Shown: positions 9,417 through 33,429 of the stretch, one piece after another
Layout of the letters: each line of letters opens with the position of its first letter
Numbering within the stretch: the first letter of the stretch is position 1
NCBI GenBank assembly: GCA_963718875.1
Contig: OY970378.1
Location: 477,373 to 541,372, forward strand
Source: Candidatus Parcubacteria bacterium
GTDB lineage: Bacteria > Patescibacteriota > Saccharimonadia > UBA4664 > JBIOIQ01
Direction of reading: 5' to 3'
Length of the DNA stretch: 64,000 bases
The notes under the pieces: model-generated
What the model saw: only the letters and a program-made list of their open reading frames with translations
Told to the model about the DNA's origin: nothing
The model's database searches: none
Made by a program: the position numbers and the translations under genes

Positions 9417-9420
9417 TAGA

Positions 9421-9540: not shown

Positions 9541-9574
9541 AGATTGCTTGCTCTTTTGTTCGCCAAGGGTGTTC

Positions 9575-9850
9575 ATCTTTTTCCAATGTCGTCCCGACAC
9601 CTTGCCTTGATTAAGATAGGTACCACCAAACTGTCAGTACTTTTTATTTTTAGCTCTTTAGTCCAGCCTAAGACCGTTTGAGATGATTTATGTCTTTTTT
9701 GGTGTTATCTCAAGTTTATGGCATTCAAAGTCTAAGTTCTGTAGCGAGGGTAACTTATAATCCTTTTGGCTGCCTAAGGTAGTACTTTGACTACTGACAG
9801 TTTGGTGGTGCCTAGTTAAAACACCACCAGTGGATGTGTCTGGTTGATAC
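9575..9850. mobile_element. MITE-like element, copy 1 (internal 22-bp terminal inverted repeats GGTACCACCAAACTGTCAGTAC)
   Basis: Its reverse complement matches 26831-27085 almost base for base. It has internal TIRs and no ORF. Confidence 0.7.
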
Positions 9851-10002
9851 TTTTATAAATGGTATTCGTGATGAATCCCGGCGTTAATTTAAAGAGAGCT
9901 CAAGGCCATTAAAAAGCCACCGTGAGCTCTTTGAAGATCCATTTCGCTACTTAAAAGTATGGCCGTTTTTCGTTTAAGTGGACAGAACCGAAGCCTTTGT
10001 GC

Positions 10003-10031
10003 TTGACAGGCTTAATGGGTTTCGCTAATAT
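10003..10031 (+). promoter_or_regulatory. consensus sigma70 promoter TTGACA-N17-TAATAT
   Basis: TTGACA at 10003-10008 and TAATAT at 10026-10031. Confidence 0.6.
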
Positions 10032-10038
10032 AGCATTC

Positions 10039-10140
10039 ATGAAGTCTCAAAAAATGTGTGTACAACTAACCACGACTCGCCGACAAGCTTTGGCTCTTGG
10101 CGTTTTAATTGTGGCCGCACGCAGTGAGAGGCTTTTGTAA
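10039..10140 (+). CDS. putative leaderless 33-aa hydrophobic peptide (MKSQKMCVQLTTTRRQALALGVLIVAARSERLL); the unit could instead be an sRNA
   Basis: The ATG lies ~8 nt downstream of the -10 hexamer with no Shine-Dalgarno. A terminator hairpin follows at 10168-10195. Confidence 0.3.
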   Translation: MKSQKMCVQLTTTRRQALALGVLIVAARSERLL

Positions 10141-10167
10141 CTTTTCCTAAAGAGTAGAATTTTTGCA

Positions 10168-10195
10168 AGAGCCTCCAACCGGAGGCTCTTTTTAG
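10168..10195 (+). terminator. rho-independent terminator (agagcctcc-aacc-ggaggctct + TTTTT)
   Basis: Perfect 9-bp stem followed by a T-run. Confidence 0.7.
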
Positions 10196-10322
10196 TTTTA
10201 CAACTTACGTACTTGGCACATTTCTGCGGCAGCACTTGTGTTTCTCGCTCAACGTACTTTCGTGTACGTCTCGTTGCGATACTCGGTGCTTTCTTGAACT
10301 GTACTCAAGTGCATAAGTTGTA
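10196..10322. repeat. palindromic repeat family, copy B
   Basis: Its ends aacttacgtacttggcacatttc...actcaagtgcataagtt form an imperfect long palindrome, closely matching the copy at 55491-55628. Confidence 0.6.
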
Positions 10323-10335
10323 AGAATAGCGTTAT

Positions 10336-10411
10336 GGGGACTAGGTGTCTGGGCTATGACACGTCTTGCATTATCGGTGCAAGGAAGGAGGTTCAAATCC
10401 TCAAGTCTCCA
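10336..10411 (+). tRNA. tRNA-like element (non-canonical; possible pseudo-tRNA or integration-site remnant)
   Basis: 7-bp acceptor pairing (GGGGACU/AGUCUCC). T-arm GGAGG-TTCAAAT-CCTC. D-arm GUGU/ACAC. Anticodon arm with a 7-nt loop UUAUCGG. Three extra nucleotides between the D and anticodon arms, and no encoded CCA. Confidence 0.35.
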
Positions 10412-10419
10412 CTGCAGTA

Positions 10420-10890
10420 CCTACCAAAACCAAAAAAGGGGAAAGTAGTGAGAAATTCTGTTCGAAGCCTCCCTGGATGGACCACCTGTTCTCTTCACTT
10501 TGGGGCGAGTTCTATCGCAGAAGCTCGGGTGAAAGCTCTAGGGTTGGTGGGCATGGCCGATGACGCCTCAGTTAAGGCGGCATTAAGGGGCTGGACCATC
10601 AGGCAGGTGATAGTTCGGGATGAGCGTTTCATCGCTTTGGTCGCAGAGCTAGAAGTTCTTGGAGTACATCTCAAAGAAAAGGGCGTTCCGCGCTCGTGGA
10701 GGGTCTCGAAAGAAGAAGCTTCAACTCTCGCTGCTCAGTAGTACAGGGAGTCGTCCATCTGATGGGAGGAAGCCCAAACAGGGTGGACAAGGGTGCTGCA
10801 AAAAGTTTTAAAGTTGGCGATCCTAACTTTGAGACTTGGCCTCCGAAAGACGTGATAACAGCGTGTCTTTTGGGGGCCTTACCCATGTTA
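10420..10890 (+). other. GC-rich (~55-58%) foreign-looking segment with protein-like but fragmented frames (e.g. MADDASVKAALRGWTIRQVIVRDERFIALVAELEVLGVHLKEKGVPRSW)
   Basis: GC content is elevated. Overlapping ORFs on both strands with no clean gene; it sits beside the tRNA-like element. Confidence 0.35.
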
Positions 10891-10900
10891 TAATTTACGT

Positions 10901-11162
10901 CATGATAGCCTACATTTTGTACAATAAAGATACCCCAATGGAGCGCGATGTACGGTATTTTGCCAAGCGTCTCGAATCGTTACAGGTGCAAAGCAAACTA
11001 GTTGAAGCCGATTCAGTTGAAGGAATTAGTTTTACGGAAAATTATGACTTACTTGCTCGACCGTCGCTTGTTTTAGCTACAGACAATGGCGTACTTATTG
11101 AGCGTTGGCAGGGTGAGCTACCTTTGGTGGAAAATGTAAGTTATTTGGCTCACCAATCGTGA
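10901..11162 (+). CDS. hypothetical small protein (~87 aa)
   Basis: ORF with native AT-rich composition; no recognisable motif. Confidence 0.4.
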
Positions 11163-11227
11163 CGCAAAAATGCTCTTGTCGCTCAATGGGCTGTCCCGGC
11201 AAGTACTTTCAAGAAAGTTGGTCGTAG

Positions 11228-11500
11228 GTGAGCCAGTTTGTAAGCATTCTGTTAGTGTTTTTTAACTTATTTGTTATTGCCTTTAATGCTATTTTGATTA
11301 TACGGATTGTTGTAAGCTGGATTATGCCCGACATGCAGGCAAATTGGTTTGGTCGCTTATTGATTGATACAACTGAACCAATATTGGCACCGGTGAGGAA
11401 AATTTTACCGGGGGGTGGAATGATTGATTTGGCGCCGATGGTGACAATAATTGGTCTTTACGCCTTGCGAACATTGATATTTAGTTTGCTATTTCGCTAG
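11228..11500 (+). CDS. yggT: YggT family membrane protein
   Basis: SWIMP...TEPILAPVRKILP...IDLAPMV pattern typical of YggT. Confidence 0.75.
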   Translation: MSQFVSILLVFFNLFVIAFNAILIIRIVVSWIMPDMQANWFGRLLIDTTEPILAPVRKILPGGGMIDLAPMVTIIGLYALRTLIFSLLFR

Positions 11501-11534
11501 CAATGCGTCATTATGTGGGTACAAAGTAAAAGCG

Positions 11535-11715
11535 TGTCGACTAAATGACAAGTGGTTATCAGCCACTAGCTAGCGAGAAGAACAGCAAGCTAATTGCCTA
11601 CTAGACCTTGCCGGTGTGCCCCGTAAGAGCACAAATGAAGTGTCCATCTGGATAAGCAGGGTGGTACCTCCCGTTAGAAGTAATGGGACCCTGCAAACGG
11701 ATGGTTTTTTTATTG
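11535..11715 (+). promoter_or_regulatory. T-box leader upstream of ileS
   Basis: T-box-like AGGGTGGTACC. A terminator/antiterminator helix (ACCTCCCGTT...AACGGATGGT) plus a U7 run lies just before the ileS start. Confidence 0.55.
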
Positions 11716-11728
11716 TAGGAGATGAAGA

Positions 11729-14700
11729 ATGAAAAAAGTCGAACAAGCTAACTTTCCCGAATTTGAGCAAGAGATGCTTAAAATATGGGATAAGGAAAAG
11801 ACTTTTGAACAAAGCCTAGAGCTACGAAAAGGATCCAAGCGGTTTAGTTTTTACGATGGGCCTCCTTTTGCTAATGGCCTGCCACATTATGGACACGTTG
11901 TAGCAATCACCGAAAAGGATTCGATGACACGTTACAAAACTATGCGTGGGTATTTTGTGCCTCGCCGGAATGGTTGGGACACTCATGGGCTACCGGTAGA
12001 GTATGAAGTCGAAAAACAGTTAGGTATTTCAGGGAAAAAACAGATACAGGAAATGGGAGTAGATAAGTTTAATGAAGCCGCCAGGGCCAGTGTCTTTAAA
12101 TACAAAGAGCATTGGGAAGATTTTATGACTCGTATTGGCCGATGGGCCGATAAAAACTCGTATGCTACTTTGGACGATAGCTATATTGAAAGTGTTTGGT
12201 GGGTTTTAGGTCAGCTTCATGAAAAGGGTTTGATATATCGAGGATTCCGCTCTAACCCGTATTGCCCACGATGCGCCACTCCTCTTTCTAATTTTGAGGT
12301 GAACCAGAATTATAAGGACAATGTGTTGGACCCAAGCGTTTTTGTGAAGTTCGCTTTGGTTGAAGATCCGAACACAAGCCTGCTGGCTTGGACGACGACT
12401 CCATGGACGCTTCCGGCCAATGCGGCTTTGGCTGTTGATTCGGCGGCTGAATACGTGACGGTAGAATTGTTGGCGGATGGTGATGGTTGGGAAAAGGGGG
12501 AGAAGCTGATACTCGCGAAGAAGCGGATTGGTGAACTGGATCTGAGGAAGGCTGAGTATAAGGTAGTTAAAACACAGCAGGGCAAAGAGTTAGTCAATAA
12601 AATGTACTCTTCATTGTATGACTTGGCGATGAAAAGGCCTCCCGTTGAGTGGTCAGGTGCATCCGAAGGTCAACCTGGCCGCCCCAGAGCCAACCAAGTT
12701 TATGAGGATGACTCGGTTAGTCTTGAGGATGGGACCGGTATTTTACATATTGCTCCAAGATATGGAGAAGCCGATCTAGATTTGGGCATTAGGGAAGACT
12801 TGCCACTAATAGAAAGCGTTGATGGTAATGGACTTATGGCGGAGTCTTTTAAAGAAATTTCCGGGCTTGAAGACATTGTCGGGATGTTTTTTAAGAAGGC
12901 TGACCCGTTAATTATCGAGGATCTAGCTAAAAAAGGTCGCATCTTTGCCGCCGAATCTTTTGAGCATACTTACCCGTTTTGTTGGCGCTGCGAAACGCCG
13001 TTGATGTATTTTGCTATGCCGAGCTGGTTTGTAAAGGTAACAGAATTAAGAGACAAGCTGGTGGCTAACAACGAAAAAATCAATTGGGTGCCTAAGCATA
13101 TTAAGACTGGTCGTTTTGGTAATTGGCTGGCCGAGGCGCGCGACTGGAATTTTAGCCGCAATCGGTTTTGGGGTGCGCCTATCCCAATTTGGGTTAATGT
13201 GGACGACGAAACTGACTTGATCATAATCAAGTCAGTCCAAGAGCTGGAAGAGCTTTCTGGAGTTAAAGGAATTGATTTGCATCGTCCGAGTATAGATGTG
13301 GTTATACTCGAGCGCGACGGCAAAACATATAAACGAGTGGAAGAGGTGTTTGACTGCTGGTTTGAAAGCGGGTCAATGCCTTATGCCCAAGATCATTATC
13401 CGTTTGATGATAAAGAGAATTTTGATGATAAATTTCCGGCGGAGTTTATAGCCGAAGGCTTGGATCAGACGCGGGGCTGGTTTTACACCCTCCATGTTCT
13501 TGGCACGGCTTTGTTTGACAAGCCGGCGTTTAAGAATGTTATTGTTCACGGAATGGTTCTGGCGGCAGACGGGAAAAAGCTTAGTAAAAGATTAAGAAAT
13601 TACCCTGAACCATCAGAAATTTTTAATGGGACTGGAGCTGATAGTCTAAGGTTTTTCCTTATGAGTAGCCCAGTTGAAAATGGCGAAGATGTTCGTTTTA
13701 GCTACGATGCAGTCAATGAAGTTAAGCGCAACGTCTTTATGACGCTATGGAACGTCTTATCCTTCTTTACGACCTATGCCGAAATTGATAAATGGAAACC
13801 GAATACAAAAATTGTACAGCCTAAATCAAATAATGTCTTAGACGAATGGATGCTTGTAAGGCTAAACCAAACAACAGCCATCATGACGAAAGCGGCGGAT
13901 AGCTACCAGATTTCAAAAGCCGTAGAACCTTTAAAGGACTTGATTGACGATTTATCCAATTGGTACGTAAGACGTAGTAGGCGAAGGTTTGCCAAGAACG
14001 AAAGTAAGGCTGATAAGCTTCAAGCATTTGAAACGTTGCACTACGTATTGTTGCGAACTTCACAACTACTTGCACCTTGGTCGCCGTTTGTAAGCGATAA
14101 GGTGTGGCGAATTATTACCGAGGGAATGGATATTCCCCGCTCTGTGCATTTGAGTGACTGGCCGGAAGTTGGAGAAATTAGTAATGGAATATTACTCAAT
14201 GACATGAAAGAAATGCGTGATTTAGTTACCGAAGGTTTGGCTCAGAGGGCGGCAGCAGGAATTAAGGTGCGCCAGCCTTTAGCAGATGCACGATACGCAG
14301 GCAAAAAGCTGGATGATAGGTTAGTTGAAATTGCGGCCGAAGAGCTCAACGTCAAGCGACTTATAAATGACCCCACAGAAGAGGAAATTTCAAGTCGATT
14401 TGAAAAGATTGTTCCCGGTTCGACTGGTTTCAAACATGAGCCAGGGTTGCCGTCCAAACTGGTTTCCGTAAGTCGATTGGATAATCTTGTTGATCAAGAT
14501 TCTGGTGTCGAACAACTTGAAGAAAGTTTGAGTATAAAAAAAATAATATTGAATACTGAAATGACTCAAGAGTTAAAGCTGGAAGGCTTGGCGCGGGATC
14601 TTATACGCCAAGTGCAAGTTGCGCGCAAAGAGGCCGATCTTCAAGCCAATGACGTCATAAATCTGCTACTTGGAGTTGAAGGCGAGGCTGCAGAGGCGGC

Positions 14701-14830
14701 AAAGGCTTATGCTGAGATGATAGGCCGCGAGACTCTTGCCCAAGACTTTAAGGTCAGTAACATTGATCCGAGTGTTGTTCCGATACGGTTGGCGGGACAC
14801 GATATTACAATTGATTTAAGTAAGGCCTGA
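11729..14830 (+). CDS. ileS: isoleucyl-tRNA synthetase
   Basis: HIGH motif (PHYGHV), KMSKS-like KLSKRL, and CP1 editing-domain length. Confidence 0.95.
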   Translation: MKKVEQANFPEFEQEMLKIWDKEKTFEQSLELRKGSKRFSFYDGPPFANGLPHYGHVVAITEKDSMTRYKTMRGYFVPRRNGWDTHGLPVEYEVEKQLGISGKKQIQEMGVDKFNEAARASVFKYKEHWEDFMTRIGRWADKNSYATLDDSYIESVWWVLGQLHEKGLIYRGFRSNPYCPRCATPLSNFEVNQNYKDNVLDPSVFVKFALVEDPNTSLLAWTTTPWTLPANAALAVDSAAEYVTVELLADGDGWEKGEKLILAKKRIGELDLRKAEYKVVKTQQGKELVNKMYSSLYDLAMKRPPVEWSGASEGQPGRPRANQVYEDDSVSLEDGTGILHIAPRYGEADLDLGIREDLPLIESVDGNGLMAESFKEISGLEDIVGMFFKKADPLIIEDLAKKGRIFAAESFEHTYPFCWRCETPLMYFAMPSWFVKVTELRDKLVANNEKINWVPKHIKTGRFGNWLAEARDWNFSRNRFWGAPIPIWVNVDDETDLIIIKSVQELEELSGVKGIDLHRPSIDVVILERDGKTYKRVEEVFDCWFESGSMPYAQDHYPFDDKENFDDKFPAEFIAEGLDQTRGWFYTLHVLGTALFDKPAFKNVIVHGMVLAADGKKLSKRLRNYPEPSEIFNGTGADSLRFFLMSSPVENGEDVRFSYDAVNEVKRNVFMTLWNVLSFFTTYAEIDKWKPNTKIVQPKSNNVLDEWMLVRLNQTTAIMTKAADSYQISKAVEPLKDLIDDLSNWYVRRSRRRFAKNESKADKLQAFETLHYVLLRTSQLLAPWSPFVSDKVWRIITEGMDIPRSVHLSDWPEVGEISNGILLNDMKEMRDLVTEGLAQRAAAGIKVRQPLADARYAGKKLDDRLVEIAAEELNVKRLINDPTEEEISSRFEKIVPGSTGFKHEPGLPSKLVSVSRLDNLVDQDSGVEQLEESLSIKKIILNTEMTQELKLEGLARDLIRQVQVARKEADLQANDVINLLLGVEGEAAEAAKAYAEMIGRETLAQDFKVSNIDPSVVPIRLAGHDITIDLSKA

Positions 14831-14873
14831 TTCGGGTCGGCTTGATGCATAAAAAGCTGTACAATATACGGTA

Positions 14874-15983
14874 ATGCTTCGTAAACGGTTTTGGAAAAAC
14901 TTTGATTTTATTTTGCTAGTAGTAGCTTTGTTGCTGGCGCTTGTAGGCATATTGGTTTTGTACTCTATTGGTTTTAAGGTAGCGAACTTGGCTTCTCCTG
15001 TGGCTGTGCGTAACCAGATAGTTTTTGCCGTGATTGGTGTTGTGGGGCTGCTTGTTTTCGCGGTGGTTGATTATAGAAGTTGGACTAAGTTCACACCGTT
15101 CCTTTACGTTGCAATGGTAGTACTCCTAGGAGTTGTACTTATAGCAGGAAAGTCTGCACTGGGAGCAACCAGGTGGATCAACTTAGGGTTTTTCCAGTTT
15201 CAGCCTTCAGAATTAGCAAAATTGGTGTTGATTGTGATATTAGCGCGCTTTTTTGCAACACACTATGATCAAATGGACAAGCCTCGCTATATTATCCAAT
15301 CGGCTATTTATATGCTTATTCCAGCAGTCCTAGTTCTTACGCAACCCGATCTTGGTACAGCCATGGTTTTGGGCGTTATTTGGCTGGTAATGATTCTAAC
15401 CACAAAAGCGCCAAAAATGTTGTTTGTGGTGTTAGGAGTTGTGGGCTCAATGTTACTACCTACTGCATATCATTTTTTAGGCGACTATCAAAAAGCCCGC
15501 ATCGCGGTGTTTCTAAATCCTTCGGTTGATCCTCAAGGGCGTGGGTTCAATGTTATCCAATCGACTATTGCAGTAGGGAGTGGGCAGCTTTTTGGCCGGG
15601 GTCTAGCTGCTGGTAGCCAGAGCCAACTCAACTTTTTGCCCAGCCAGCATACTGACTTTATATTTGCGGTCTTGACCGAGAAGATGGGGTTTATCGGTGG
15701 TTCCTTGTTGCTGTTAATGTTTGGCTTGTTACTCGCCAGAGGACTATTAATAGCTTATCGTGCCCAAGATCGTTTTGGGCTATTTCTAGCGGTTGGTATA
15801 GTAACGATGTTTGCGTTTCATGTTTTTATTAATGTAGGGATGAACATGGGGATTATGCCGGTTACAGGGATACCATTGCCGTTTGTCAGCTACGGTGGCA
15901 CCAGCTTACTGATAGGAATGATTGGAGTGGGACTATTGGAGTCTGTTAATGTTCGGCGCAAAAAACTGGAGTTTGGAAACTAA
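14874..15983 (+). CDS. SEDS-family peptidoglycan glycosyltransferase (FtsW/RodA)
   Basis: Ten TM helices. FtsW/RodA signatures PSEL and GSGQL-like motifs. Confidence 0.85.
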   Translation: MLRKRFWKNFDFILLVVALLLALVGILVLYSIGFKVANLASPVAVRNQIVFAVIGVVGLLVFAVVDYRSWTKFTPFLYVAMVVLLGVVLIAGKSALGATRWINLGFFQFQPSELAKLVLIVILARFFATHYDQMDKPRYIIQSAIYMLIPAVLVLTQPDLGTAMVLGVIWLVMILTTKAPKMLFVVLGVVGSMLLPTAYHFLGDYQKARIAVFLNPSVDPQGRGFNVIQSTIAVGSGQLFGRGLAAGSQSQLNFLPSQHTDFIFAVLTEKMGFIGGSLLLLMFGLLLARGLLIAYRAQDRFGLFLAVGIVTMFAFHVFINVGMNMGIMPVTGIPLPFVSYGGTSLLIGMIGVGLLESVNVRRKKLEFGN

Positions 15984-16013
15984 AAATTTATAAAACACTG
16001 GCTTTGTTTTTTT

Positions 16014-16022
16014 TGATATAAT
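16014..16022 (+). promoter_or_regulatory. extended -10 promoter (TGaTATAAT)
   Basis: TGnTATAAT motif directly upstream of the GC-rich block. Confidence 0.4.
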
Positions 16023-16028
16023 CGAGGT

Positions 16029-16534
16029 GGCGAAGAGGAGGAAGGTGGATCTATGCAGACGAATGCTGTGCGTTTACGCCAGTTACGTCCGCGCAAGAAA
16101 GACTTGAATTTCTTCACGGTTGAGGACATGCAACGATGGGCTCGGAACCGCCGCAAACCTCCTTACATACCAGTGCAAACGGCAACAGCTGCTTTTGGCC
16201 TGATTTTGCAGCAGGCTAATATACTGGAAATTGAGGTGAGGTGTGCACTAGGCAGTAACTGTAGAATCAAGGTAGGGTGGACTCTAGGCAAGAAAAGATA
16301 TTGCACGGCGGTCCACTGGGTGAATCGTCGTGATTTTGTCCGCTGTCGGTTCGAAACGTTCCGCTCAGTTAAACGAGGTGGGCCTGTACTCGCCGGAACG
16401 CTTTGCCGCTACCAGGAGTACCTGAGGCATGGAGGGGGGAGGAAGGTCGCTTAAGGGCTACCTTCCTCCCATGGTCTTTACATACGAGGCCAAACCTGGT
16501 ATTATTCCAAGGTTATCAATTTAAGAAAAGTTAT
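16029..16534 (+). ncRNA. candidate structured RNA or long rplU leader (weak RNase P RNA-like resemblance); alternatively a 133-aa Arg-rich foreign ORF
   Basis: ~52-57% GC block between the promoter and rplU. The only ORF (16053..16454) is very basic and low complexity. A strong 11-bp hairpin lies at 16437-16470. GAGGAAGGUGGAUCUAUGCAG loosely resembles the P4 region of rnpB. Confidence 0.3.
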
Positions 16535-16834
16535 ATGCAAGCAATTATCACCACTGGTGGCAAACAATACATCGTAGCCAAGGACCAAACTCTAGAGGTA
16601 GAGTTATTGGGCGAAGTCAAAAAACTTGAATTTGACGTACTTATGACTATGGATGGGGATAAATTTCAAGTTGGCGCACCTTTTGTGGCTGGTGTTAAAG
16701 TAAAGGCCGAAGTGTTAGAGGAAACAAAGGGTGAAAAAATTAAAGTTTTAAAGTTTAAGGCGAAAAAGCGCGTCAAAAAGCTTACTGGCCACCGTCAGCA
16801 CTATTCCAAGATTAAAATCGTCTCCATCGGTTAA
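16535..16834 (+). CDS. rplU: 50S ribosomal protein L21
   Basis: MQAIITTGGKQY...; start taken at the ATG at 16535. Confidence 0.9.
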   Translation: MQAIITTGGKQYIVAKDQTLEVELLGEVKKLEFDVLMTMDGDKFQVGAPFVAGVKVKAEVLEETKGEKIKVLKFKAKKRVKKLTGHRQHYSKIKIVSIG

Positions 16835-16860
16835 AAAGCCGCCCAACCGGGCGGTTTTTT
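16835..16860 (+). terminator. rho-independent terminator (gccgcccaaccgggcgg + T6)
   Basis: GC stem followed by TTTTTT immediately after the rplU stop. Confidence 0.75.
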
Positions 16861-16888
16861 AGTTAAGGCTCAAATATTGGATTGCTAC

Positions 16889-16917
16889 TTGAAATATTTA
16901 TAATCAACACATATAAT
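16889..16917 (+). promoter_or_regulatory. sigma70 promoter TTGAAA-N17-TATAAT
   Basis: Hexamers at 16889-16894 and 16912-16917. Confidence 0.55.
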
Positions 16918-16953
16918 GGTGGTACCGTCAATCAAGCCTTAGGAGGCCGACGA

Positions 16954-17499
16954 ATGCTCAAGAGACCCCTTATCACGCGTCCGATTGAGGATGTTGTCGC
17001 GGACATCCTCGATCTCGATCTCGGACCGATCAGGTTCACGCTCGTTCGTCGAGGCTGGACCGGAGGTCTGGCTGACCGCTTCATCACGGAGTACCGCCGC
17101 CTTCTTGAGCTGATGGTGCGGTTTCCAGATGATGTCATCGTCCCTTCGGAGGACGTGGATACCGTCTGGCACACCCACATCCTCGACACGGCCAGGTACC
17201 GCGATGACTGCATGCGGATCTTCGGCTTCTTCCTCGACCATTTCCCGTATTTGGGCACGCGTGGATCTGACGACGAGGATGAACTTCGTCGGCTGTACAC
17301 CCGATCGCGGGAGCTGTATGAGCAGACGTTCGGCCATCGGACGGTGTCTACGGCATCGGCCTGCTCCGCGTTCGGAGCTGGGAATGGAGATGTACCCGTT
17401 CCAGCTCTGGTTGGAGCAGCCACAGTGGCGTATTGTGGCGGGGGTGGCGGAAAGCCGTCGTCTGCTCCTAGCTACCACCAAGGTGGTAGCTGTGGCTGA
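16954..17499 (+). CDS. GC-rich (~62%) foreign gene: glycine-rich-domain (GRDP/DUF1399-like) protein with a Gly/Cys-rich tail
   Basis: AGGAGG Shine-Dalgarno. Motif DTVWHTHILDTARYRDDCMRIFGFFLDHFPY. GC3-rich codon usage unlike neighbouring genes. A hairpin lies at 17515-17548. Confidence 0.6.
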   Translation: MLKRPLITRPIEDVVADILDLDLGPIRFTLVRRGWTGGLADRFITEYRRLLELMVRFPDDVIVPSEDVDTVWHTHILDTARYRDDCMRIFGFFLDHFPYLGTRGSDDEDELRRLYTRSRELYEQTFGHRTVSTASACSAFGAGNGDVPVPALVGAATVAYCGGGGGKPSSAPSYHQGGSCG

Positions 17500-17628
17500 G
17501 GGTCTTGAAGTAAGGTTGATGGTGGCGGTTACGGCCGCCACCATCAACTTGATACAAATGTTTATGAAGTTAGCTCGTTCGCACCATAACCGGTAATCTG
17601 GTACAATCTACTCTAGAAACGAGGGATT

Positions 17629-18543: not shown

Positions 18544-19446
18544 ATGGGAGGTAATAAAGGTTTAGGACGAGGGTTTGATTCACTAATACCTACGCAGTTG
18601 GTGGAGGAAGAGTTTGACCCGACTGCTAGCACGAGTAATAGCGAAGGGTCTAGACCTTCGGCCGACTCTATTTATCAAATTGATTTAAAGTTGGTGGATC
18701 CAAACCCGCACCAGCCGCGGTTAGTGTTTGATGATGCGGCACTAGACGAACTTGCTGCATCGATAAGACAACACGGCATACTACAGCCAATTATTGTTAC
18801 CGAACAAGGCGAGGGACGTTATCAGTTGATTGCGGGCGAGCGGCGTCTGCGAGCAGCGAAATTAGCGAGCCTTAAAACAATCCCTGGCATAGTGCGTAGT
18901 TTTACCGATCAACAGAAGCTTGAGCTGGCTTTGATTGAAAATCTCCAACGCCAAGATCTTAACCCTATCGAAACAGCCACAGCTTACCGTAAACTGGTTG
19001 ATCAATTTAACCTTACGCTAGACACTATTGGAAAAAAAGTTGGGAAGGATACTTCAACTATCTCAAACAGTATGAGATTGCTTAATTTGCCGCTTGAAGC
19101 CAAGAGGGCGGTGGCTAGCGGCCAGATGACTGAGGGGCATGGGCGGACGATTCTAACAGTTCTTAATCCTGAAAAGCAGCTGGTGTTATGTAGGATGATT
19201 ATTGCTAATGATTGGTCTGTGCGTCAAGCTGAGGAGTTTGCTCGCGGATTTAAAGAGCCGAGTGCAACAAAAGACACGGCTTTGAAAAGGATTGCCGAGA
19301 CCAATGAAGTTACCCAGTCTCTGAGTAACTATTTGGGCGCAAAGGTAACCTTGCGTCATACTGCAAGAGGGGGGCGTTTAACAATTGAATACTACTCTGA
19401 AGAGGAATTAGATCGCATTTACCGGGCGATTAAATCGGATAGCTAA
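18544..19446 (+). CDS. parB: ParB/Spo0J partition protein
   Basis: ParB box GERRLRAA and an HTH region. Confidence 0.9.
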   Translation: MGGNKGLGRGFDSLIPTQLVEEEFDPTASTSNSEGSRPSADSIYQIDLKLVDPNPHQPRLVFDDAALDELAASIRQHGILQPIIVTEQGEGRYQLIAGERRLRAAKLASLKTIPGIVRSFTDQQKLELALIENLQRQDLNPIETATAYRKLVDQFNLTLDTIGKKVGKDTSTISNSMRLLNLPLEAKRAVASGQMTEGHGRTILTVLNPEKQLVLCRMIIANDWSVRQAEEFARGFKEPSATKDTALKRIAETNEVTQSLSNYLGAKVTLRHTARGGRLTIEYYSEEELDRIYRAIKSDS

Positions 19447-19452
19447 GATTTG

Positions 19453-20298
19453 CTACAGCAGGGATTGAACTAGCTTTGGTAGGTCTTGAGATACTAGAGA
19501 AAAGAGGCGGAACTTGTCGAGTGGCAGCAACCGAACAGCAGCAGTGCCAACAATTTGTTTTGAGGGTAAAAATCCCCATTCTCGAGAGTCAAAAGATCCA
19601 TTTGGACTGCGGTTATCTCCGAGGACAAAAATACTTCCTTCGGGAACGATGTCGTCAAAAGTGCCTTGAGTGGTCTCGGTTGCGCGTTGGTAAGTTGTAA
19701 GGTCCGGGTCGATACCCTGTGGGTTGAGTTTATTAAAAACTCTGACACGGCCATCTTTTATAACTACATGCTCACCCGGCAGACCAATAACTCGTTTTAC
19801 AAAAATTAGGTTAGGATCTCTAGGGTAGTGGAACACAACGACGTCATAGCGATTAGGTATATAGGCGGAGTTCTTAAATCCGCTAATAGATTTTCCAATT
19901 TTTGACACTATGAGGTAATCAGTGTCATGGAGCGTTGGGTCCATGCTTTGGCCTACAACGTGAAAGGCTTGAAAGACAAAATTGTGCAGAATAAATACTA
20001 TGATAATCGGTATAATAACCCAGTTTAAGATACCAAAGAATATTGACGATATGGCCGAGAAGGCAGTTGATCCCATGTGATTTGACTTGGCCTCGGGTTC
20101 GCTCGAAACACTTTCTGCTGCACCTACTGGGTTTGCCGGGCTGTTACTTTGTTCGTTGTCTGGTGGACTGGGCGGATTGGTTATAGGCTGAGGTGTGGAG
20201 GGTAAAGGCTCCACTTGGCTCGCGAGAGAATTGGTATTCACCGGCTGAGTTGGCGGTACTTGGTTTGGGTTCGGGTTGGTGGGAGTATCGTCATTCAT
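19453..20298 (-). CDS. lepB: signal peptidase I with a Pro-rich N-terminal extension
   Basis: GQSMDPTL (serine box), VKRVIGLPGE, GDNRSPNGSFDSREWGF. Confidence 0.9.
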   Translation of the reverse strand: MNDDTPTNPNPNQVPPTQPVNTNSLASQVEPLPSTPQPITNPPSPPDNEQSNSPANPVGAAESVSSEPEAKSNHMGSTAFSAISSIFFGILNWVIIPIIIVFILHNFVFQAFHVVGQSMDPTLHDTDYLIVSKIGKSISGFKNSAYIPNRYDVVVFHYPRDPNLIFVKRVIGLPGEHVVIKDGRVRVFNKLNPQGIDPDLTTYQRATETTQGTFDDIVPEGSIFVLGDNRSPNGSFDSREWGFLPSKQIVGTAAVRLLPLDKFRLFSLVSQDLPKLVQSLL

Positions 20299-20425
20299 AC
20301 TTAAACTACTATACGCGTTGCATAGATTTGCAGCAAGCTACGAGCTAAGGCTAGTTGTGCTTTTTGGTAAATTATAGCTGTTAATGGTTTACTCTTAACG
20401 GTTATGTCGTTTATACTTAAGCGTA

Positions 20426-21862
20426 ATGGATGAACTCAGCCGACAAAAAATGCGTCGCGCCAACGGCTTCGCAAGGACTACTTTTGGTGGATTTGAACAT
20501 ACTAGAGCAGCAGAAAGGATTGCGCCTGCGGTAGTAGCCTCGCCAAAGGAAGTCTTTGATTATAAAAAAACCAAAATGCCTAAAGTGCATCGATATCGTT
20601 CGACAAAAACGATTGCAGTTATGTCCGCTGCCGTACTAGGCATAACAGTGGTATTTTTTGGGGTAAAAATTGTTTTAGCGACTAATAAGGTTATAACTCG
20701 GAATAATACTGGTGGAGCGCCGGCGCTTTCTAGTGGTACCGTGGTACCAAGTAAACTAAAAGGGGAAGGTGACGGTCGGGTAAACATTTTGCTTATGGGT
20801 ATTGGTGGTGCTGGACATCCCGGAGGATTGCTTAGTGACACCATGATGGTTGTAAGTATTGACCCAAATACCAAAGACACAGCAATGTTAAGCATCCCGA
20901 GAGACTTATGGGTGCAAATTCCCGGTAAGGGAATGAGTAAAATTAATGCCGCGAACGCTTATGGAGGGCCTGAGGTGGCCAAGACGGTGGTCGCTAAAAC
21001 ACTAGATATACCAATACATTACTACGTTCAGCTTGATTTCCAGGGTTTCAAACTGGCAGTTGATCAAGTGGGGGGGATAAACGTTGTGAATGCGACGGCA
21101 TTAAATGATTCTGGGTATCCATGTGATGATGGCGGCGCCTGTCCTTATTATTTGGCCGCTGGAGAGCATTTGCTCAATGGTGCGCAAGCACTTAAGTTTG
21201 CGCGTTGTCGCGAAGGTACATGTGGTAGTAACTATGGTCGGGAAGATCGGCAGCGTCAAAGTTTGCTGGCTTTACGCCAAAAAGCTATGGCTATTTCAAC
21301 TCTCACAAATCCGGTAAAAATTGCCAGCTTAATTGACATTGTTGGCGGGCATCTAAAAACTGATTTACAAATAGCTGATATGGCTAAATTGGCAACTATT
21401 GCAAAATTAGTGGATCCGGATTCTGTTGTGATGAAGGGTCTTGATGATTATACCCTTAGTGGTATGGTGGCTGGTCAAAGTGTAGTGTTGCCAAAGACTG
21501 GAAACTTTGGCGAGATTCGTAATTTTGCTCATTCGATCTTTATCGACACTTATATAAAGCAAGAAAACGCTAGTATAGCGGTGCAAAACGGTACTTCAAG
21601 ATCAGGGTTAGCGGCTACGGTAGGGGCGTTATTAGAAGATACGTACAAATATAACGTAGTTTCAACTACGACTGCTGACAACCAAAACTACCCCACGACT
21701 ATAATTTTTGATTACAGTAATGGTAAAAAGCCCTACACGGTCAATTATTTGGCAACAAGGTTTGGTGTCAAGGTTCAGCGTGCTACGGCTCCGGCTGGAA
21801 ATGTTGCTGACATAAAAATTATTCTTGGAGCCGATTATCATCCTACCGTCATTTCTCGTTAA
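20426..21862 (+). CDS. LytR-CpsA-Psr (LCP) family protein
   Basis: LCP core LLMGIGGAG...SDTMMVVSIDP...MLSIPRDLWV; N-terminal TM helix. Confidence 0.85.
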   Translation: MDELSRQKMRRANGFARTTFGGFEHTRAAERIAPAVVASPKEVFDYKKTKMPKVHRYRSTKTIAVMSAAVLGITVVFFGVKIVLATNKVITRNNTGGAPALSSGTVVPSKLKGEGDGRVNILLMGIGGAGHPGGLLSDTMMVVSIDPNTKDTAMLSIPRDLWVQIPGKGMSKINAANAYGGPEVAKTVVAKTLDIPIHYYVQLDFQGFKLAVDQVGGINVVNATALNDSGYPCDDGGACPYYLAAGEHLLNGAQALKFARCREGTCGSNYGREDRQRQSLLALRQKAMAISTLTNPVKIASLIDIVGGHLKTDLQIADMAKLATIAKLVDPDSVVMKGLDDYTLSGMVAGQSVVLPKTGNFGEIRNFAHSIFIDTYIKQENASIAVQNGTSRSGLAATVGALLEDTYKYNVVSTTTADNQNYPTTIIFDYSNGKKPYTVNYLATRFGVKVQRATAPAGNVADIKIILGADYHPTVISR

Positions 21863-21909
21863 CGACTATAAAGCTACGGTAGGTAAATGTAGTATAATCG
21901 TAAAAACAG

Positions 21910-22662
21910 ATGAAATCGTGGAAGTTAAATTTCTCTTCGGCAACTATTTATAACAGCCTACTTACTTTTATAATAGTGCTACTAGCTATCGCCCATCAAC
22001 CGGCTTTAGCAGTCGGTGTGTTGCTTGCAGATGAGGCGTGGCGCTGGTGGCGACATGATGAGCGGAGCTTGGAATTTATACAAGCTGATAGCTGGTTATG
22101 GCTTAGCGGCATCGCTAGTATAATAATTATTAGCCTTAGCCCAAATTTTGCGATGCAGTTAATATTGTCTATTCTGTTTAGTACCTGGCGCTGGTGGCTC
22201 TTGGCTCGTTTTGAGGTTTCGGAAAATCCCCCTATGATCGTAGCCGCTATTACTCAATCACTAGTGTTGTGGGCGGTGTTTCTAGCTACCGCGGTTTGGC
22301 ATTGGCCAACTATTTTAGTATTAGTCATCATATGGGGGTGCAGCTGGACTATAGCTTGGCAGGTGTTTGCATCCGTAAAGGACAGGGCGGCTGGAGCCTT
22401 AGCTTTGACTTGGGCTTTGATTGTGGCAGAGAGCTCTTGGGTGTTCTCGCTTTGGCTGGTTAATTACGTGGTCTTTAATGGACTACTTATAATTCCTCAG
22501 CCGGCGCTTGTAATAAGTGCCTTGGGTTATTGCTTGGCGGGTATTTATACCTCGCATCGCCGAAGCCAGTTGACTCGCAAACGTTTAGTTGAGTATCTGA
22601 CCATCGGTTTGGTGATCTTGGTTATTGTCATAGCTGGGACTAAATGGAATGGGGTTATTTAG
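21910..22662 (+). CDS. hypothetical Trp-rich polytopic membrane protein
   Basis: Multiple hydrophobic helices; no recognisable motif. Confidence 0.45.
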   Translation: MKSWKLNFSSATIYNSLLTFIIVLLAIAHQPALAVGVLLADEAWRWWRHDERSLEFIQADSWLWLSGIASIIIISLSPNFAMQLILSILFSTWRWWLLARFEVSENPPMIVAAITQSLVLWAVFLATAVWHWPTILVLVIIWGCSWTIAWQVFASVKDRAAGALALTWALIVAESSWVFSLWLVNYVVFNGLLIIPQPALVISALGYCLAGIYTSHRRSQLTRKRLVEYLTIGLVILVIVIAGTKWNGVI

Positions 22663-22798
22663 AATTTTTAACTTAAATAGTTTTTATTTGTGAAAGCTTA
22701 AGTTCAAAAACTGGAATGTAGGTGGGTTAAAGTAAGGTCTTTCTCAGCTCATTGTTGGTATAATAAGTTTGTAATCATTTTGTAAACGAAGGACTCTC

Positions 22799-23998
22799 AT
22801 GGAAGTACATCAGGACGACGGATCCGAGCATAAATTAGATGAAAAACCAAGGTTATCTTCCAATGATAATGTTTTGCCTAGAAACGTTTCTAGCCCTGCC
22901 GGACAACTGGTCTTACTAAGCCTAATTTTTGGTCTTTTGGGTGGGCTTGGAGGAGGGTTTTTAATAGCAAAGTATGGCTCAAGCATCTCTAAGGCAGACC
23001 AAAAAAAGGTGGTCTTGCAAGATAGTTCCGCCATTATTGATGTAGTAAAATCGACTTCTCCAAGTGTCGTTAGTATAAGTTCGCAAACAACCGGGATAGG
23101 CTTATTTGGGCTGCAAACTAGTCAAACAGGGGCAGGAACGGGAATCATTGTCAGCTCGGATGGCTTAATATTAACCAACAATCATGTCGTGAGTGATCAG
23201 GGGGCTACTTTTAGTGTCTTTACGTCGAATGGCCAGGAATATAAGGATGCAACGGTTGTTGCGACTGACCCAACCAGAGATATAGCTTTCATCAGAATTA
23301 AAGCTAAAGGGCTAAAGGCTGCTACATTGGGAGACTCTAGTAATTTAGTAGTAGGGGCTAGGGTTATTGCTATTGGAAACGCCCTGGGCCAGTTTCAGAA
23401 TAGTGCTACTGAAGGGATTATTTCTGGCTTAGGCAGACCGATTGAAGCAGCGAGTGGCAGTAGTGACGGGAGCGGTGTAGAGTCTCTGGATAACCTTATC
23501 CAAACAGATGCTGCCATTAACCCTGGTAACTCTGGTGGTCCACTTGTAAATATTAGTGGGCAGGTGATTGGCATGAATACAGCCATTGCCGGACAAGCTC
23601 AAAATATCGGTTTTGCTATACCAATTAATCTTGCTAAAACGGCCCTCGAAAGTGTCAAGAGTAAAGGCAGGATCACGCGACCTTACTTAGGGGTGCGATA
23701 TCTCGATATTACACCAAGCTTTGCTGCCAGGAATAATATTAAGCAGACTGCTGGTGCTTATGTTTCAGGAGACCGAAACAACTTGGCGGTTTTGCCGGAT
23801 AGTCCTGCTGCTAAAGCTGGCCTCAGAGAAGGAGATATTATTATCAAAATCAATAAGGATACTATTGATGCCAATCACCCCTTGTCTGGCCTGGTGTCGA
23901 AATATGGTATCGGCGACAAGCTAACTATTACCTATATCAGGGACGGTAAGACTCAAACTGTCACCGCCACTCTTGCTGAAGCACCAAGTAATGGCTAA
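22799..23998 (+). CDS. htrA: HtrA/DegP-family serine protease with PDZ domain
   Basis: Catalytic GNSGGPLVN; PDZ-like C-terminus. Confidence 0.9.
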   Translation: MEVHQDDGSEHKLDEKPRLSSNDNVLPRNVSSPAGQLVLLSLIFGLLGGLGGGFLIAKYGSSISKADQKKVVLQDSSAIIDVVKSTSPSVVSISSQTTGIGLFGLQTSQTGAGTGIIVSSDGLILTNNHVVSDQGATFSVFTSNGQEYKDATVVATDPTRDIAFIRIKAKGLKAATLGDSSNLVVGARVIAIGNALGQFQNSATEGIISGLGRPIEAASGSSDGSGVESLDNLIQTDAAINPGNSGGPLVNISGQVIGMNTAIAGQAQNIGFAIPINLAKTALESVKSKGRITRPYLGVRYLDITPSFAARNNIKQTAGAYVSGDRNNLAVLPDSPAAKAGLREGDIIIKINKDTIDANHPLSGLVSKYGIGDKLTITYIRDGKTQTVTATLAEAPSNG

Positions 23999-24360
23999 AC
24001 TTGTTTAAGTTGAGCAATTTCCGCTTGAAGTTTAGTGGCTTTTTCTAAGCTAACATCGTAAATGTTCTTGCCATAGGCCTCGACAATGACATGGTCATGT
24101 CTGAGTAAGTAGTGCTCCACCTTTGAACTTACCTTGATGGTTATTTCGGCTTTCCATTCAAATCTAGGATTTGCATAAGGGGTAGTCAGGGTTAATTCAA
24201 TGGTGCCGTCAAGGTAGTCGAGCTTAGTCCCATATAAAATAAGCTTGTCATCTGGCAAGTCAATTAAGTCCCGTCCATAAACCTTGTTTGCTTTACCACT
24301 ATTGGGACTTTTTAAAATCTCAACAATATCGGCATAAATAATGTTCCAAATCTGCTCCAT
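23995..24360 (-). CDS. hypothetical protein (121 aa)
   Basis: ORF of native composition immediately preceding prmC on the minus strand; no recognisable motif. Confidence 0.4.
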   Translation of the reverse strand: MEQIWNIIYADIVEILKSPNSGKANKVYGRDLIDLPDDKLILYGTKLDYLDGTIELTLTTPYANPRFEWKAEITIKVSSKVEHYLLRHDHVIVEAYGKNIYDVSLEKATKLQAEIAQLKQV

Positions 24361-24364
24361 TAGG

Positions 24365-25168
24365 TTATTTTAGTTGGAATCCCAAAATAAAGTAACCTTG
24401 TTCTGTTAAGGCTAGGCCTGCCTGTGCGGCTTCGTGTATAAGTTCTGGCTGTTGCCAAGGGTCGGATTCGATAAAAACGTATCCGTTGGGGGCTAAGTGG
24501 TTGCCAAGTTGATGAAAAAAACGGCGGTATAGTTCCAAGCCATCGTTTCCGCCAAATAAAGCTACGGCAGGCTCACGCCGTACTTCTGGCATAAGTTCGG
24601 CATCGTTTTTAAGGTAGGGGAGGTTGGTTACGATGGTGGAGAACTTCCCTGAAATATCATCAAATAAGTCTGATTGAATAAACTTAGTATTCAATTTAAG
24701 CTGAGCTGCATTTTTCTTTGCAAGTGTCATTGCTGTGGGTGAAATTTCGGTGGCTGTAATACTTAGATCAGGACGGTGGTGGGCTATGCTCAAAGCTATG
24801 GCGCCTGATCCGGTTCCAATATCAATAAGATCTGAATTTTTAAATGCATATTGAATGGCCCATTCAACCATTTGTTCAGTTTCAACCCTGGGGGTTAAAA
24901 CATCGGGAGTAATCATAAACATTAAACCATAAAACTCTCGCTGATTTATAAGGTGGACGAGAGGGACGCGCTGCGCACGTTGGGCGATAAAAAAATTGAA
25001 CTCTGTTACGATCTTTTTGTCTAAATCGCTATTTGGGTTGGCTAGCAGATGCTCTCTAGACCGGTTGGAAGCATATTCTAATAATACGAGCGTATCAAGG
25101 CGGTGACTAGATATCCCGGCTTTTTCAAGAGTCTGTGATGAATTTTTTAATACATGTCCAATTGTCAT
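24365..25168 (-). CDS. prmC: release-factor glutamine methyltransferase PrmC/HemK
   Basis: SAM motif [11 protein letters not shown] and an NLPY (NPPY-like) motif; downstream of prfA. Confidence 0.85.
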
Positions 25169-26241
25169 AGAGCGGCTGCGTTTAAAGCTGATTCAAGTTC
25201 GGTTTTTCGCAAAGCTTCAATCATTTCGCCAATGTTGCCATCCATATAGCCGGGTAAATTGTGTCGGCTTATACCAATGCGATGGTCCGTTACTCTATCC
25301 TGAGGAAAATTGTAAGTCCGAATTTTTTCGCTGCGATCGCCTGAGCCAATTTGGCTACGACGTGCTGAATCAGTTTCGCTACGTTCTTGTTCAAGTTTCA
25401 TTGCTAGCAGACGCGAGCGTAGTACCCCCATGGCCTTGGTCTTGTTTTTTAGTTGGCTTTTTTCGTCTTGGCAGGTAACTACTAGTCCTGTGGGAAGATG
25501 GGTTATTCGAACTGCAGAATCGGTGGTATTTACAGATTGTCCTCCGTTGCCGCCTGATCGATATACATCAATTCGCAAGTCATTAGGATTTATTTCAAGC
25601 TCAGTTTCTTCGGCTTCGGGAAGAACTGCTACTGTAACGGTAGATGTGTGTATTCGGCCTCCAGATTCTGTGACGGGTATACGCTGAACCCTATGAACTC
25701 CTGATTCAAATTTAAGCTCTCCATAGGCGTTTGAGCCGTGGATACCAAAGATTATTTCTTTAAAACCACCGACATCACTAGGGCTTTCTGAGATAAGCTC
25801 TAAGCGCCAGCCTTTGCTTTCCGAATAGTGGCTATACATGCGAAAAAGTTCTCCAGAAAATAATGATGCCTCGTCTCCACCAGCGCCTGCGCGAATTTCG
25901 ACAATGGCATTCTTGGCATCATGAGGGTCAGTCGGTACTAGAGCAAGCTTAAGCGCCTCTTGAGTTTGATTAAGCTGATGCTCAAGCTCGGGGATTTCTG
26001 CTTCGGCTAGATCGTGCAATTCTGGATCGGATAGTGCTTGCCGGTTTTCTTCTAGGTCTGAGCTTAACTTAGCCCTTCGGTCGTACAGCTCAATCGTAGA
26101 GGCTAGTTCAACCTGCCTCTTGCCGAGGTTGGCCGCTTCAGGTGTACCATAAACTGTGGGATCTTGCATCCGCTCGTTTAACTGGGTGTATTCGTCTCGT
26201 AGTTTACGTTCTGTTTCGTCCATGGTTTTTACTCTAATCAA
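25165..26241 (-). CDS. prfA: peptide chain release factor 1
   Basis: GGQ motif [24 protein letters not shown]. Confidence 0.95.
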
Positions 26242-26289
26242 AATGCGCTGCTTCTATTGTAGCAGCGCATTTTGATTAATTTCTGTTAA

Positions 26290-26631
26290 TTACTTATTGT
26301 TTTCGAGCTGCTTTATATCCACAGTTTCTGTGGCCAGCTCCGCTTCTATTTTTTCAATTGAATCTTCGACTAAAGCCTCGGAATTGCCCTTTCTTGGAGC
26401 TTTTGGCTTTGACTTAGATTTTAACTTTTCAGCTTGACTGCGGCGGGCGTTAAATTTATCGACTCGGCCAGCAGTGTCGATTAGTTTTTGCTTACCGGTA
26501 TAGAAAGGATGACAATTTGAGCAAATTTCAACAGTAATTTCTGGAACCGTTGAATGGGTTTGGAATGTCGTGTTACAGCCGTTGCAATGTACCTTGGTGT
26601 CGATGTAATTTGGATGGATTCCGGTTTTCAT
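26290..26631 (-). CDS. rpmE: 50S ribosomal protein L31 with a Lys-rich C-terminal extension
   Basis: MKTGIHPNY...[12 protein letters not shown] signature; start taken at the internal Met of the listed ORF. Confidence 0.8.
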
Positions 26632-26830
26632 GGATAGGAGTATATCAGGAAATCGCTCGGCAGGCAACATTAGTGGGTCTGGGTGCTGTCCACTTAAATG
26701 GAACGACCAAGCTTTTAAGTGGCGTAAATGGATCTTCAAAGCGCTCTCGGCGGCTTCTTCTTGGCCCTAAGCTCTCTTATAATTCCGGGAATCATCACTA
26801 ATGTCATCTCTAAAAGTATCAACCAGACAC

Positions 26831-27085
26831 ATCCACTGGTGGTGTTTTAACTAGGTACCACCAAACTGTCAGTAGTCAAAGTACTGCCTTAGGCAGCCAA
26901 AAGGATTATAAGTTACTCTCGCTTTAAAGCTTAGACTTTAAATGCCATAAACTTGAGATAACACCAAAAAAGACATAAATCATCTCAAGCGGTCTTAGGC
27001 TGGCCTAAAGAGCTAAAAATAAAAAGTACTGACAGTTTGGTGGTACCTGCCTTAATCAAGGTAAGATGGCAGGGCGACATAGGAA
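26831..27085. mobile_element. MITE-like element, copy 2 (inverted relative to copy 1)
   Basis: Reverse-complement match to 9575-9850, including the GTACTGACAGTTTGGTGGTACC ends. Confidence 0.7.
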
Positions 27086-33422: not shown

Positions 33423-33429
33423 CAAAGTC

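Follow-up and report, generated by a model that had tools for sequence, protein, structure and literature searches.

An orphan inverted repeat pair, possibly a non-autonomous insertion element, brackets a 16.7-kb division and translation gene segment in a Saccharimonadia genome

In a 64-kb stretch of a 1.19-Mb Saccharimonadia genome (contig OY970378.1; the whole stretch is called the window here, and positions refer to it unless another locus is named), we have characterized a pair of inverted, non-coding repeats of approximately 415 nt. Copy 1 lies at 9577-9993 on the forward strand, just past ftsZ, and copy 2 at 26675-27090 on the reverse strand, between the divergent rpsB and rpmE promoters; they enclose a 16.7-kb segment (9994-26674) that runs from a small open reading frame (ORF) to rpmE. 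The copy number of two refers to this window. We hold with moderate confidence that the unit is an orphan non-autonomous insertion repeat, similar to the miniature inverted-repeat transposable elements (MITEs) and specific to this Saccharimonadia lineage.

The inverted repeat pair is real and was recovered by repeat detection, blastn and MAFFT. The inverted-repeat search returned arms of 306 nt (9581-9886 and 26780-27085, 92% complementary) and, beyond a 4-nt indel, a further 59 nt (9886-9944 and 26726-26784, 83% complementary), while blastn aligned the two copies over 410 nt at 88.3% identity (9581-9989 against 27085-26682) and MAFFT carried their similarity to around 9993/26675. The left boundary of copy 1 is fuzzy (9566-9581), and its right edge was set by the empty site in the related locus L084, whose homology to the window picks up again at TT(C/G)TGCTTGACA (9994-10008). 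An earlier reading made from the sequence only had described near-identical inverted copies of about 260 bp, one just past ftsZ and one between rpmE and rpsB. The inverted pair and both placements stand, with the neighbouring genes confirmed by Pfam, but the unit is longer than was proposed. Furthermore, an independent k-mer assembly of the short reads of a public run produced a 17,015-bp contig, equivalent to 9826-26840, that includes both diverged right flanks and ends at the last 31-mers that distinguish the copies (single-nucleotide difference at 9856/26810, assuming k = 31). As this is where a contig is expected to end at a two-copy repeat, the pair is not an artefact of one assembly.

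At the heart of the unit is a 22-bp inverted repeat. The 22-mer AGGTACCACCAAACTGTCAGTA was found four times in the window (9618-9639, 9792-9813, 26853-26874 and 27027-27048), against an expectation of 0 from 100 shuffles. In copy 1, the left arm (9618-9639, forward strand) extends imperfectly from 9608 and the right arm (9792-9813, forward strand) to 9823, giving arms of 32 nt (9608-9639 and 9792-9823, 84%); the right arm carries one change (9810 G), which results in a U-G pair on the forward strand. In copy 2, on the reverse strand, the arm that matches the right arm of copy 1 (26853-26874) is 100% complementary to the 22-mer that matches the left arm (27027-27048). The interval between the arms measures 152 nt (196 nt with the arms included), and they are internal to the repeated unit, as similarity between the copies runs on for about 40 nt to their left and 180 nt to their right. 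Thus, the 22-bp inverted repeat of the sequence-only reading does exist and is perfect, but it is not terminal and does not surround a core of about 215 bp.

The unit is non-coding. Stop codons occur throughout all six frames of both copies, in agreement with the ORF-less core described before, and no ORF is conserved across the 4-nt indel between the copies. A hydrophobic reverse-strand ORF of 40 aa in copy 2 was considered as a type I toxin and rejected, as only 17 aa of it are found in copy 1. Instead of coding capacity, the unit has a marked propensity to fold: the forward strand as RNA reaches -122 kcal/mol (z = -4.0) and the reverse strand -104 kcal/mol (z = -3.4), and the inner unit as single-stranded DNA reaches -31 kcal/mol (z = -5.3). 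Of the ten differences between the copies in 9618-9813, nine of which are in the 152-nt interior, five fall within a small internal hairpin at 9724-9743 (forward strand). This hairpin is a perfect 8-bp stem in copy 2 and has 6/8 positions paired in copy 1, with one compensatory pair (C-G to U-A at 9726/9741), and its differences may derive from a single template-switch event. Similarly, the last hairpin of the right flank (9947-9987 region) retains its pairing through a C-G/U-G change. However, RNAalifold, applied to the two sequences, counts no fewer 'compensatory' pairs for the reverse strand, and a sample of two cannot give statistical covariation. There was no Rfam match in the window at gathering thresholds, and nothing relevant at E<=10 over 9400-10500. 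We also looked at the unit for ends and targets of the kind seen in palindrome-associated elements derived from IS200/IS605 (PATEs): a hairpin at the left end (TGTCG-TCC-CGACA) is intact in copy 1 and broken in copy 2, and the left flank of either copy has CATC(C)TTTT, perhaps no more than a part of the element. The two copies face opposite ways on one replichore.

Comparison with related genomes indicates that both sites were once empty. Searches with PrfA and FtsZ assign the window to the Saccharimonadia (TM7, Patescibacteria). We fetched the relatives' loci, together with 80 loci around ParB homologues, and mapped genes by tblastn; in the closest sampled Saccharimonadia relatives, FtsZ is 81-88% and PrfA 81-84% identical to the proteins of the window. 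Both sites are empty among the sister Saccharimonadia loci (L084, L085/L002, L005, L009, L019 and a JGI contig), and, with the copies absent from these homologous positions, both are insertions specific to this lineage, as would be expected of a mobile element. In L084, where FtsZ is 88% identical, the ftsZ stop codon is followed by 13 nt, a promoter (TTGACA-N17-TAGCAT) and a small ORF, ATGAAGTCCCAA; L085 has the same layout with a spacer of 40 nt. Relative to L084, the window has 583 extra nt after ftsZ: a 125-nt hairpin of unrelated sequence (9416-9538), then a short spacer, and finally copy 1. At the second site, the gap between rpsB and rpmE is 615 nt in the window, as opposed to 189 nt in the 80.7-kb contig that L085 and L002 together represent (which is empty at both sites), and it measures 184-233 nt in L002, the JGI contig, L005, L009 and L019. 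In further relatives the same gap has taken up other insertions: it is 550-1289 nt in L006, L007, L008, L010 and L018, and in L089 (3625-4506) it is 880 nt and contains two high-GC small ORFs, of 75 and 97 aa, that share the strand of rpsB. Across the Saccharimonadia, this gap is a hot spot for insertion.

The ancestral promoters at both sites are intact. The promoter of the small ORF (TTGACA-17-TAATAT, 10003-10031, forward strand) lies approximately 8 nt past copy 1 and is also present in the element-free loci L084 and L085, and the rpmE promoter (TTGCCT-17-TATACT, 26639-26667, reverse strand, with the ATG 7 nt downstream) lies approximately 8 nt past copy 2 and is kept in the element-free loci L002, L088 and L089. 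The divergent rpsB promoter (TTGTTT-17-TATAGT, with TG) is conserved as well, and both it and the rpmE promoter are outside the element. Each copy therefore ends some 8 nt before the -35 box of an apparently leaderless promoter and points towards that box. Since permissive gaps in this compact genome are only about 13-30 nt wide, and the two ancestral ones about 13 and 27 nt, any insertion that was tolerated there was forced to lie this close to a -35 box; the position is explained without invoking a function, as these gaps alone would tolerate an insertion. The two copies also share their orientation relative to the downstream promoter, for which the prior is one half. A leader or riboswitch of rpmE was considered for copy 2 and rejected, because the element lies upstream of the rpmE promoter and is missing from relatives.

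The small unit behind ftsZ (10003-10190) is itself conserved in relatives (L084 ~4007-4165 and L085 ~11391-11565). Its promoter is strong and its start codon is 7 nt past the -10 box, so that it is apparently leaderless, and its ORF (10039-10140) encodes 33 aa, MKSQKMCVQLTTTRRQALALGVLIVAARSERLL, with a hydrophobic tail and no Pfam annotation; a strong intrinsic terminator (10167-10190) follows. On the other side of ftsZ, the ftsA-ftsZ spacer is 838 nt in L084 (1835-2673), with a 23-bp palindromic hairpin at 1921-1967, and 241 nt in the window, so that the division cluster has a further intergenic site that varies.

The two copies resemble each other in a mosaic fashion. In copy 1 coordinates, identity is 78% in the left flank (9581-9617), 100% in the left arm (9618-9639), 94% in the 152-nt interior, 95% in the right arm (9792-9813) and 96% in the zone to its right (9814-9860, with zero changes in 9814-9855), and it falls to about 77%, with two indels, in the right flank (9861-9993, or 9861-9995 in the identity count; forward strand), which carries two hairpins. 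The high-identity centre (9605-9860, forward strand) has 12 differences in 256 nt, about 95% identity, and the divergence of the arm-bounded part (9618-9813) differs from that of the flanks (Fisher p = 2e-5). Three identical runs, of 44, 48 and 45 bp, are the longest between the copies. The centre is also poorer in GC (0.37-0.38) than the window (about 0.45). Because the conserved zone passes the right arm by more than 40 nt (42-47 nt), it is not delimited by the inverted repeats, and this overshoot argues against a young MITE that was nested independently in two old repeats. The flanks have diverged by approximately 23%, much as the ftsZ genes of the window and L084 have (26% at the nucleotide level), and the duplication is therefore not recent. 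Gene conversion, or constraint on the centre, is suggested by this pattern, which is compatible with recombination between the copies without proving it.

An inversion of the bracketed segment had been put forward in the sequence-only reading, which listed ileS, a SEDS gene, rplU, a DUF1399-like gene, parAB, lepB and prfA among its contents. Pfam upholds that list, and identified ftsZ, YggT, IleS, FtsW/RodA, L21, a GRDP-like (DUF1399) protein, ParA, ParB, signal peptidase S26, LytR, HtrA, PrmC, RF-1, L31 and S2. In the relatives, the order is ftsA-ftsZ-(small ORF)-yggT-ileS-ftsW-rplU-parA-parB-lepB(-)-lytR-x-htrA-prmC(-)-prfA(-)-rpmE(-), followed across the divergent gap by rpsB(+)-tsf, and it is uninterrupted from ftsZ to rpsB in the contig of L085 and L002. 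The orientation of the segment in the window is that of all relatives examined and, as order and orientation are the same in relatives that lack the element, it is ancestral. GC skew is positive throughout and across both segment boundaries, so neither gene order relative to the relatives nor GC skew shows a trace of a past inversion. The GRDP-like gene (16882-17499, forward strand, local GC 0.53) lies between rplU and parA, where L085 has a gap of only 150 nt, and is another lineage-specific insertion.

Inversion of this segment is mechanistically possible but unsupported, and is hypothetical. Recombination by RecA requires minimal processing segments of some 25-30 bp. With longest identical runs of 44-48 bp, the copies could in principle be adequate substrates for RecA-mediated inversion. 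Because the promoter-proximal ends of both copies face the inside of the segment, a crossover would leave all genes and both promoters intact. It would, however, set about 14 of about 19 genes (including ileS, ftsW, rplU and parAB) against the direction that the GC skew implies, probably head-on to replication. If the mosaic is due to conversion, then the copies do interact.

The search for further copies and relatives of the element was almost entirely negative. A 20-mer of the inverted-repeat arm had 0 exact matches in 185,579 species-representative genomes and none in viral contigs, phages or plasmids, and no match other than the two copies was found within the window. In metagenomes it had one match (L001, 284-311), a single arm with no partner arm on a eukaryote-like contig of 1.5 kb; the 26-29 nt in common with one arm, including copy 2 flank, are slightly longer than chance predicts, but there is no other similarity and the match is probably chance or uninformative. 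Across 89 loci, taken from related as well as unrelated genomes, neither blastn nor nhmmer nor a covariance model of the centre found a relative, and a six-frame pseudo-protein query for spurious ORFs on other copies found nothing. Of eight element-derived ORFs, a 149-aa reading of rpmE and the small post-ftsZ ORF, all submitted to exact look-up, only the rpmE reading, which runs into copy 2, had a match. We found no transposase or recombinase domain among the window ORFs scanned, no analogous long inverted repeats in the relatives' loci, and, by full-text literature search, no paper that describes MITE-like repeats in Saccharibacteria or the Candidate Phyla Radiation (CPR). The sequence family is thus new, with no relative in any collection searched, while its kind, a small palindromic intergenic repeat, is familiar. 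Further copies of the element may be sought with the string GGTACCACCAAACTGTCAGTAC.

We would account for these observations as follows. Once the lineage had separated from its closest sampled relatives, a non-coding unit of approximately 415 nt would have entered, presumably by transposition, two intergenic gaps that permit insertions. One of these gaps separates the ftsZ stop codon from the small-ORF promoter, and the other lies between the divergent rpsB and rpmE promoters. Its flanks would then have drifted, presumably neutrally, to about 77% identity, and the central 250 nt or so would have been kept at about 95%, most simply by intrachromosomal gene conversion between the inverted copies. 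Small size (415 nt, inner part 196), absence of coding capacity, a hairpin and presence or absence between relatives are all traits that the unit has in common with MITEs.

Several points weigh against this proposal, and they leave the mobile element of the sequence-only reading upheld in part: the unit is non-coding, has a 22-bp inverted repeat and is missing from the sisters' sites, but lacks terminal repeats and a partner transposase in the window and the collections searched. First, the inverted repeats lie inside the unit that was copied, and its ends are not inverted repeats; they could be called terminal only for a true unit of the inner 192-196 bp, and two copies that share flanks cannot show that this is the unit. 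For the same reason, with two such copies known, the mobile unit cannot be delimited. Second, target-site duplications, which the sequence-only reading had proposed to check at both copies, were looked for and none is demonstrable at either. At the arm borders, copy 1 reads TA-GGTACC...GGTGCC-TA and copy 2 CA-...-TA, and TA is self-complementary; for the 415-nt unit, both flanks are only vaguely similar to the L084 spacer AAGGGTTCTGC. Third, no transposase with matching ends came to light among the window ORFs scanned, and the collections searched contain no relative of the element. Finally, the conserved centre could reflect purifying selection on a function, and a shared orientation to the downstream promoter, at a chance of 50%, is also expected of a functional module.

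The main rival follows from this last point, although we judge it unlikely: the unit would be a module used by the host, either a structured RNA or a DNA hairpin that binds protein, duplicated upstream of two leaderless promoters, with its centre (9605-9860) under purifying selection. In its favour are the contrast between a centre of about 95% and flanks of about 77% identity, the 42 unchanged nt to the right of the hairpin, the better fold of the forward strand (-122 against -104 kcal/mol), the common orientation and the common distance of about 8 nt to the -35 box. Changes in the stems also keep the forward strand paired (U-G/U-A at 9810, C-G/U-A at 9726/9741, G-U/G-C at 9730/9737 and U-G/C-G in the 3' hairpin); yet the reverse strand satisfies RNAalifold equally, and two sequences give no statistical covariation. 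Moreover, the element is absent from every relative, where the same promoters function without it, it has no recognisable promoter of its own, copy 2 has no upstream gene that could transcribe it, and even at E<=10 there is no Rfam match.

A doubtful alternative to the insertion of a mobile element is a non-mobile segmental duplication, in which ectopic recombination or a template switch during replication copied a single intergenic piece once to the second site, perhaps as a side effect of an earlier inversion or re-inversion, and the hairpin is incidental. The sequence-only reading had itself named this outcome for the case that the genome has no more than these two copies and sister genomes have the same arrangement without the insertions, and the sampled relatives do have that arrangement; that two copies are known, in a unit with neither terminal repeats nor a target-site duplication, is also in its favour. 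Nevertheless, both sites are empty in relatives, so that neither can have been the source and the sequence came from elsewhere. The gene order bears no trace of an inversion, and clean entry into two very narrow gaps so close to promoters speaks more for insertion than for the scars of recombination.

More speculative, and in our view improbable, is the idea that the centre (about 250 nt) is not selfish DNA. It would then be either a lineage-specific functional hairpin module, RNA or DNA, placed just before two leaderless promoters (those of the small membrane-peptide gene after ftsZ and of rpmE-prfA-prmC), where it could insulate or regulate, or else the substrate on which a reversible recombination acts to flip either the core or the entire 16.7-kb division and translation segment. 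If true, such a module or recombination switch would be an uncommon means of regulation in a CPR genome, minimal as it is. Very unlikely, too, is the reading that the inner 196 bp are an inverton, a phase-variable DNA switch, with the 152-bp core flipped by a site-specific recombinase to modulate the downstream gene. The architecture would fit, with inverted repeats of 22-32 bp around about 150 bp just upstream of genes, and the core contains a perfect TATAAT (9756-9761) that points to the downstream gene. However, this box has no usable -35 partner and was not called by a promoter scan, no recombinase gene is among the window ORFs tested, the core has the same orientation in both copies, and the downstream genes retain their own ancestral promoters. 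Finally, an assembly artefact, a mis-joined or duplicated repeat of the sort that chimeric long reads can create, is effectively refuted by the independent 17,015-bp contig, by the more than 40 differences between the copies and by the agreement of gene order with the relatives.

Two other candidates were considered and rejected. A template and variable repeat of a diversity-generating retroelement does not fit, as the copies, both non-coding, do not differ specifically at adenines, and attachment (att) sites of an integrated element do not fit, as the copies are inverted and the segment contains only housekeeping genes.

In addition to the repeat pair, the window contains a second, unrelated repeat family, a rod-like hairpin of about 135 nt (range approximately 126-140 nt), with five copies that are all on the forward strand and are placed behind the ends of genes. 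These lie at 9415-9539 (abutting the ftsZ stop codon), 10198-10323 (after the small ORF), 38661-38800 (directly after greA), 51162-51287 and 55489-55626, and a sixth is found in the relative L087 (2535-2660), behind rpsU. The inner sequence of these hairpins is conserved, while the outer stems are wholly different between copies yet complementary: across the six sequences, 22 of 38 pairs are changed on both sides, and 88% of cells are paired, compared with 26-43% when the partners are slid. Covariation in this family is strong, and it has no Rfam match; it would be either a structured RNA (a 3' element, perhaps) or a hairpin repeat of another kind. L084 lacks two of the copies at the corresponding positions.

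Other features of the window were also recorded. At 10336-10412 (forward strand) there is a tRNA-like sequence, called as tRNA-Asp with an odd anticodon (ATC) by ARAGORN, that scores 22.9 bits against an Rfam tRNA threshold of 29; a 135-aa ORF, for which Pfam has no match, overlaps it. The start of the tRNA-like sequence, GGGGACTAGGT, is kept in L084, and ARAGORN calls no tRNA in L084, L085 or L087. Around 51000-54000 there is a high-GC island (0.58-0.65, against about 0.45) of overlapping long ORFs on both strands, with no Pfam matches and a 33-nt tandem repeat of at least five units (53352-53549), which looks foreign or like a repetitive surface-protein gene. Tandem heptamers (CAAGATA, 4-6 times) occur at 33395-33425, just upstream of a mreB-like ORF (33430), and at 57696-57740, between an ftsE-like gene and ftsX, and inverted arrays of a similar heptamer (GTATCAA) lie beside prfA in L007 (10016-10114); these may be protein-binding arrays.

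Saccharibacteria and other CPR bacteria have small, streamlined genomes. The window indicates that such a genome tolerates non-coding hairpin repeats, yet only in gaps of a few bases between terminators and promoters, and it holds at least two families of them, the two-copy element and the five-copy rod-like hairpin. There is also a practical consequence, as an inverted repeat of 415 bp breaks short-read assemblies, and it takes long reads to settle which way round the 17 kb of essential genes lie. Should the copies indeed recombine, they would offer a simple natural system for the study of gene conversion and inversion in an organism of reduced repair capacity. For the specialist in mobile elements, nothing here is surprising.

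In summary, the closest parallels to this element are found among small repeats of other bacteria. MITEs of the IS630/Tc1-mariner type, such as the Correia elements of Neisseria (CREE/NEMIS), are likewise small, non-coding and richer in AT than their host, have a perfect inverted repeat of about 22-26 bp that is able to form a long hairpin, and occupy intergenic, promoter-adjacent sites that differ in presence or absence between related genomes. They duplicate a TA target, and TA abuts both arms of copy 1, although here a duplication is not demonstrable and copy 2 has CA. Correia elements, however, are present in tens to hundreds of copies as opposed to the two known here, and the element described here differs from them in that its inverted repeats are not the ends of the unit and it has no known cognate transposase or sequence relative. 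The ERIC/IRU, RUP and BOX repeats of enterobacteria and streptococci are similar as imperfect palindromic, non-coding intergenic repeats of 100-400 nt with a patchy distribution among relatives, but they have no sequence similarity to the element, are multi-copy and are usually within transcribed regions. Invertons, such as fimS-like switches and the promoter switches of Bacteroides, also have inverted repeats of about 20-30 bp around 150 bp just upstream of a gene; in our case there is no recombinase in the window, no convincing internal promoter and no alternative orientation seen. Finally, tufA and tufB of Salmonella and the rrn operons provide the precedent for two inverted copies on one replichore with a mosaic identity that suggests conversion. 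The copies described here are only about 415 bp long and 88-95% identical, with no inversion observed and conversion suggested by two sequences, but the same crossover would, here too, invert the segment that lies between them.

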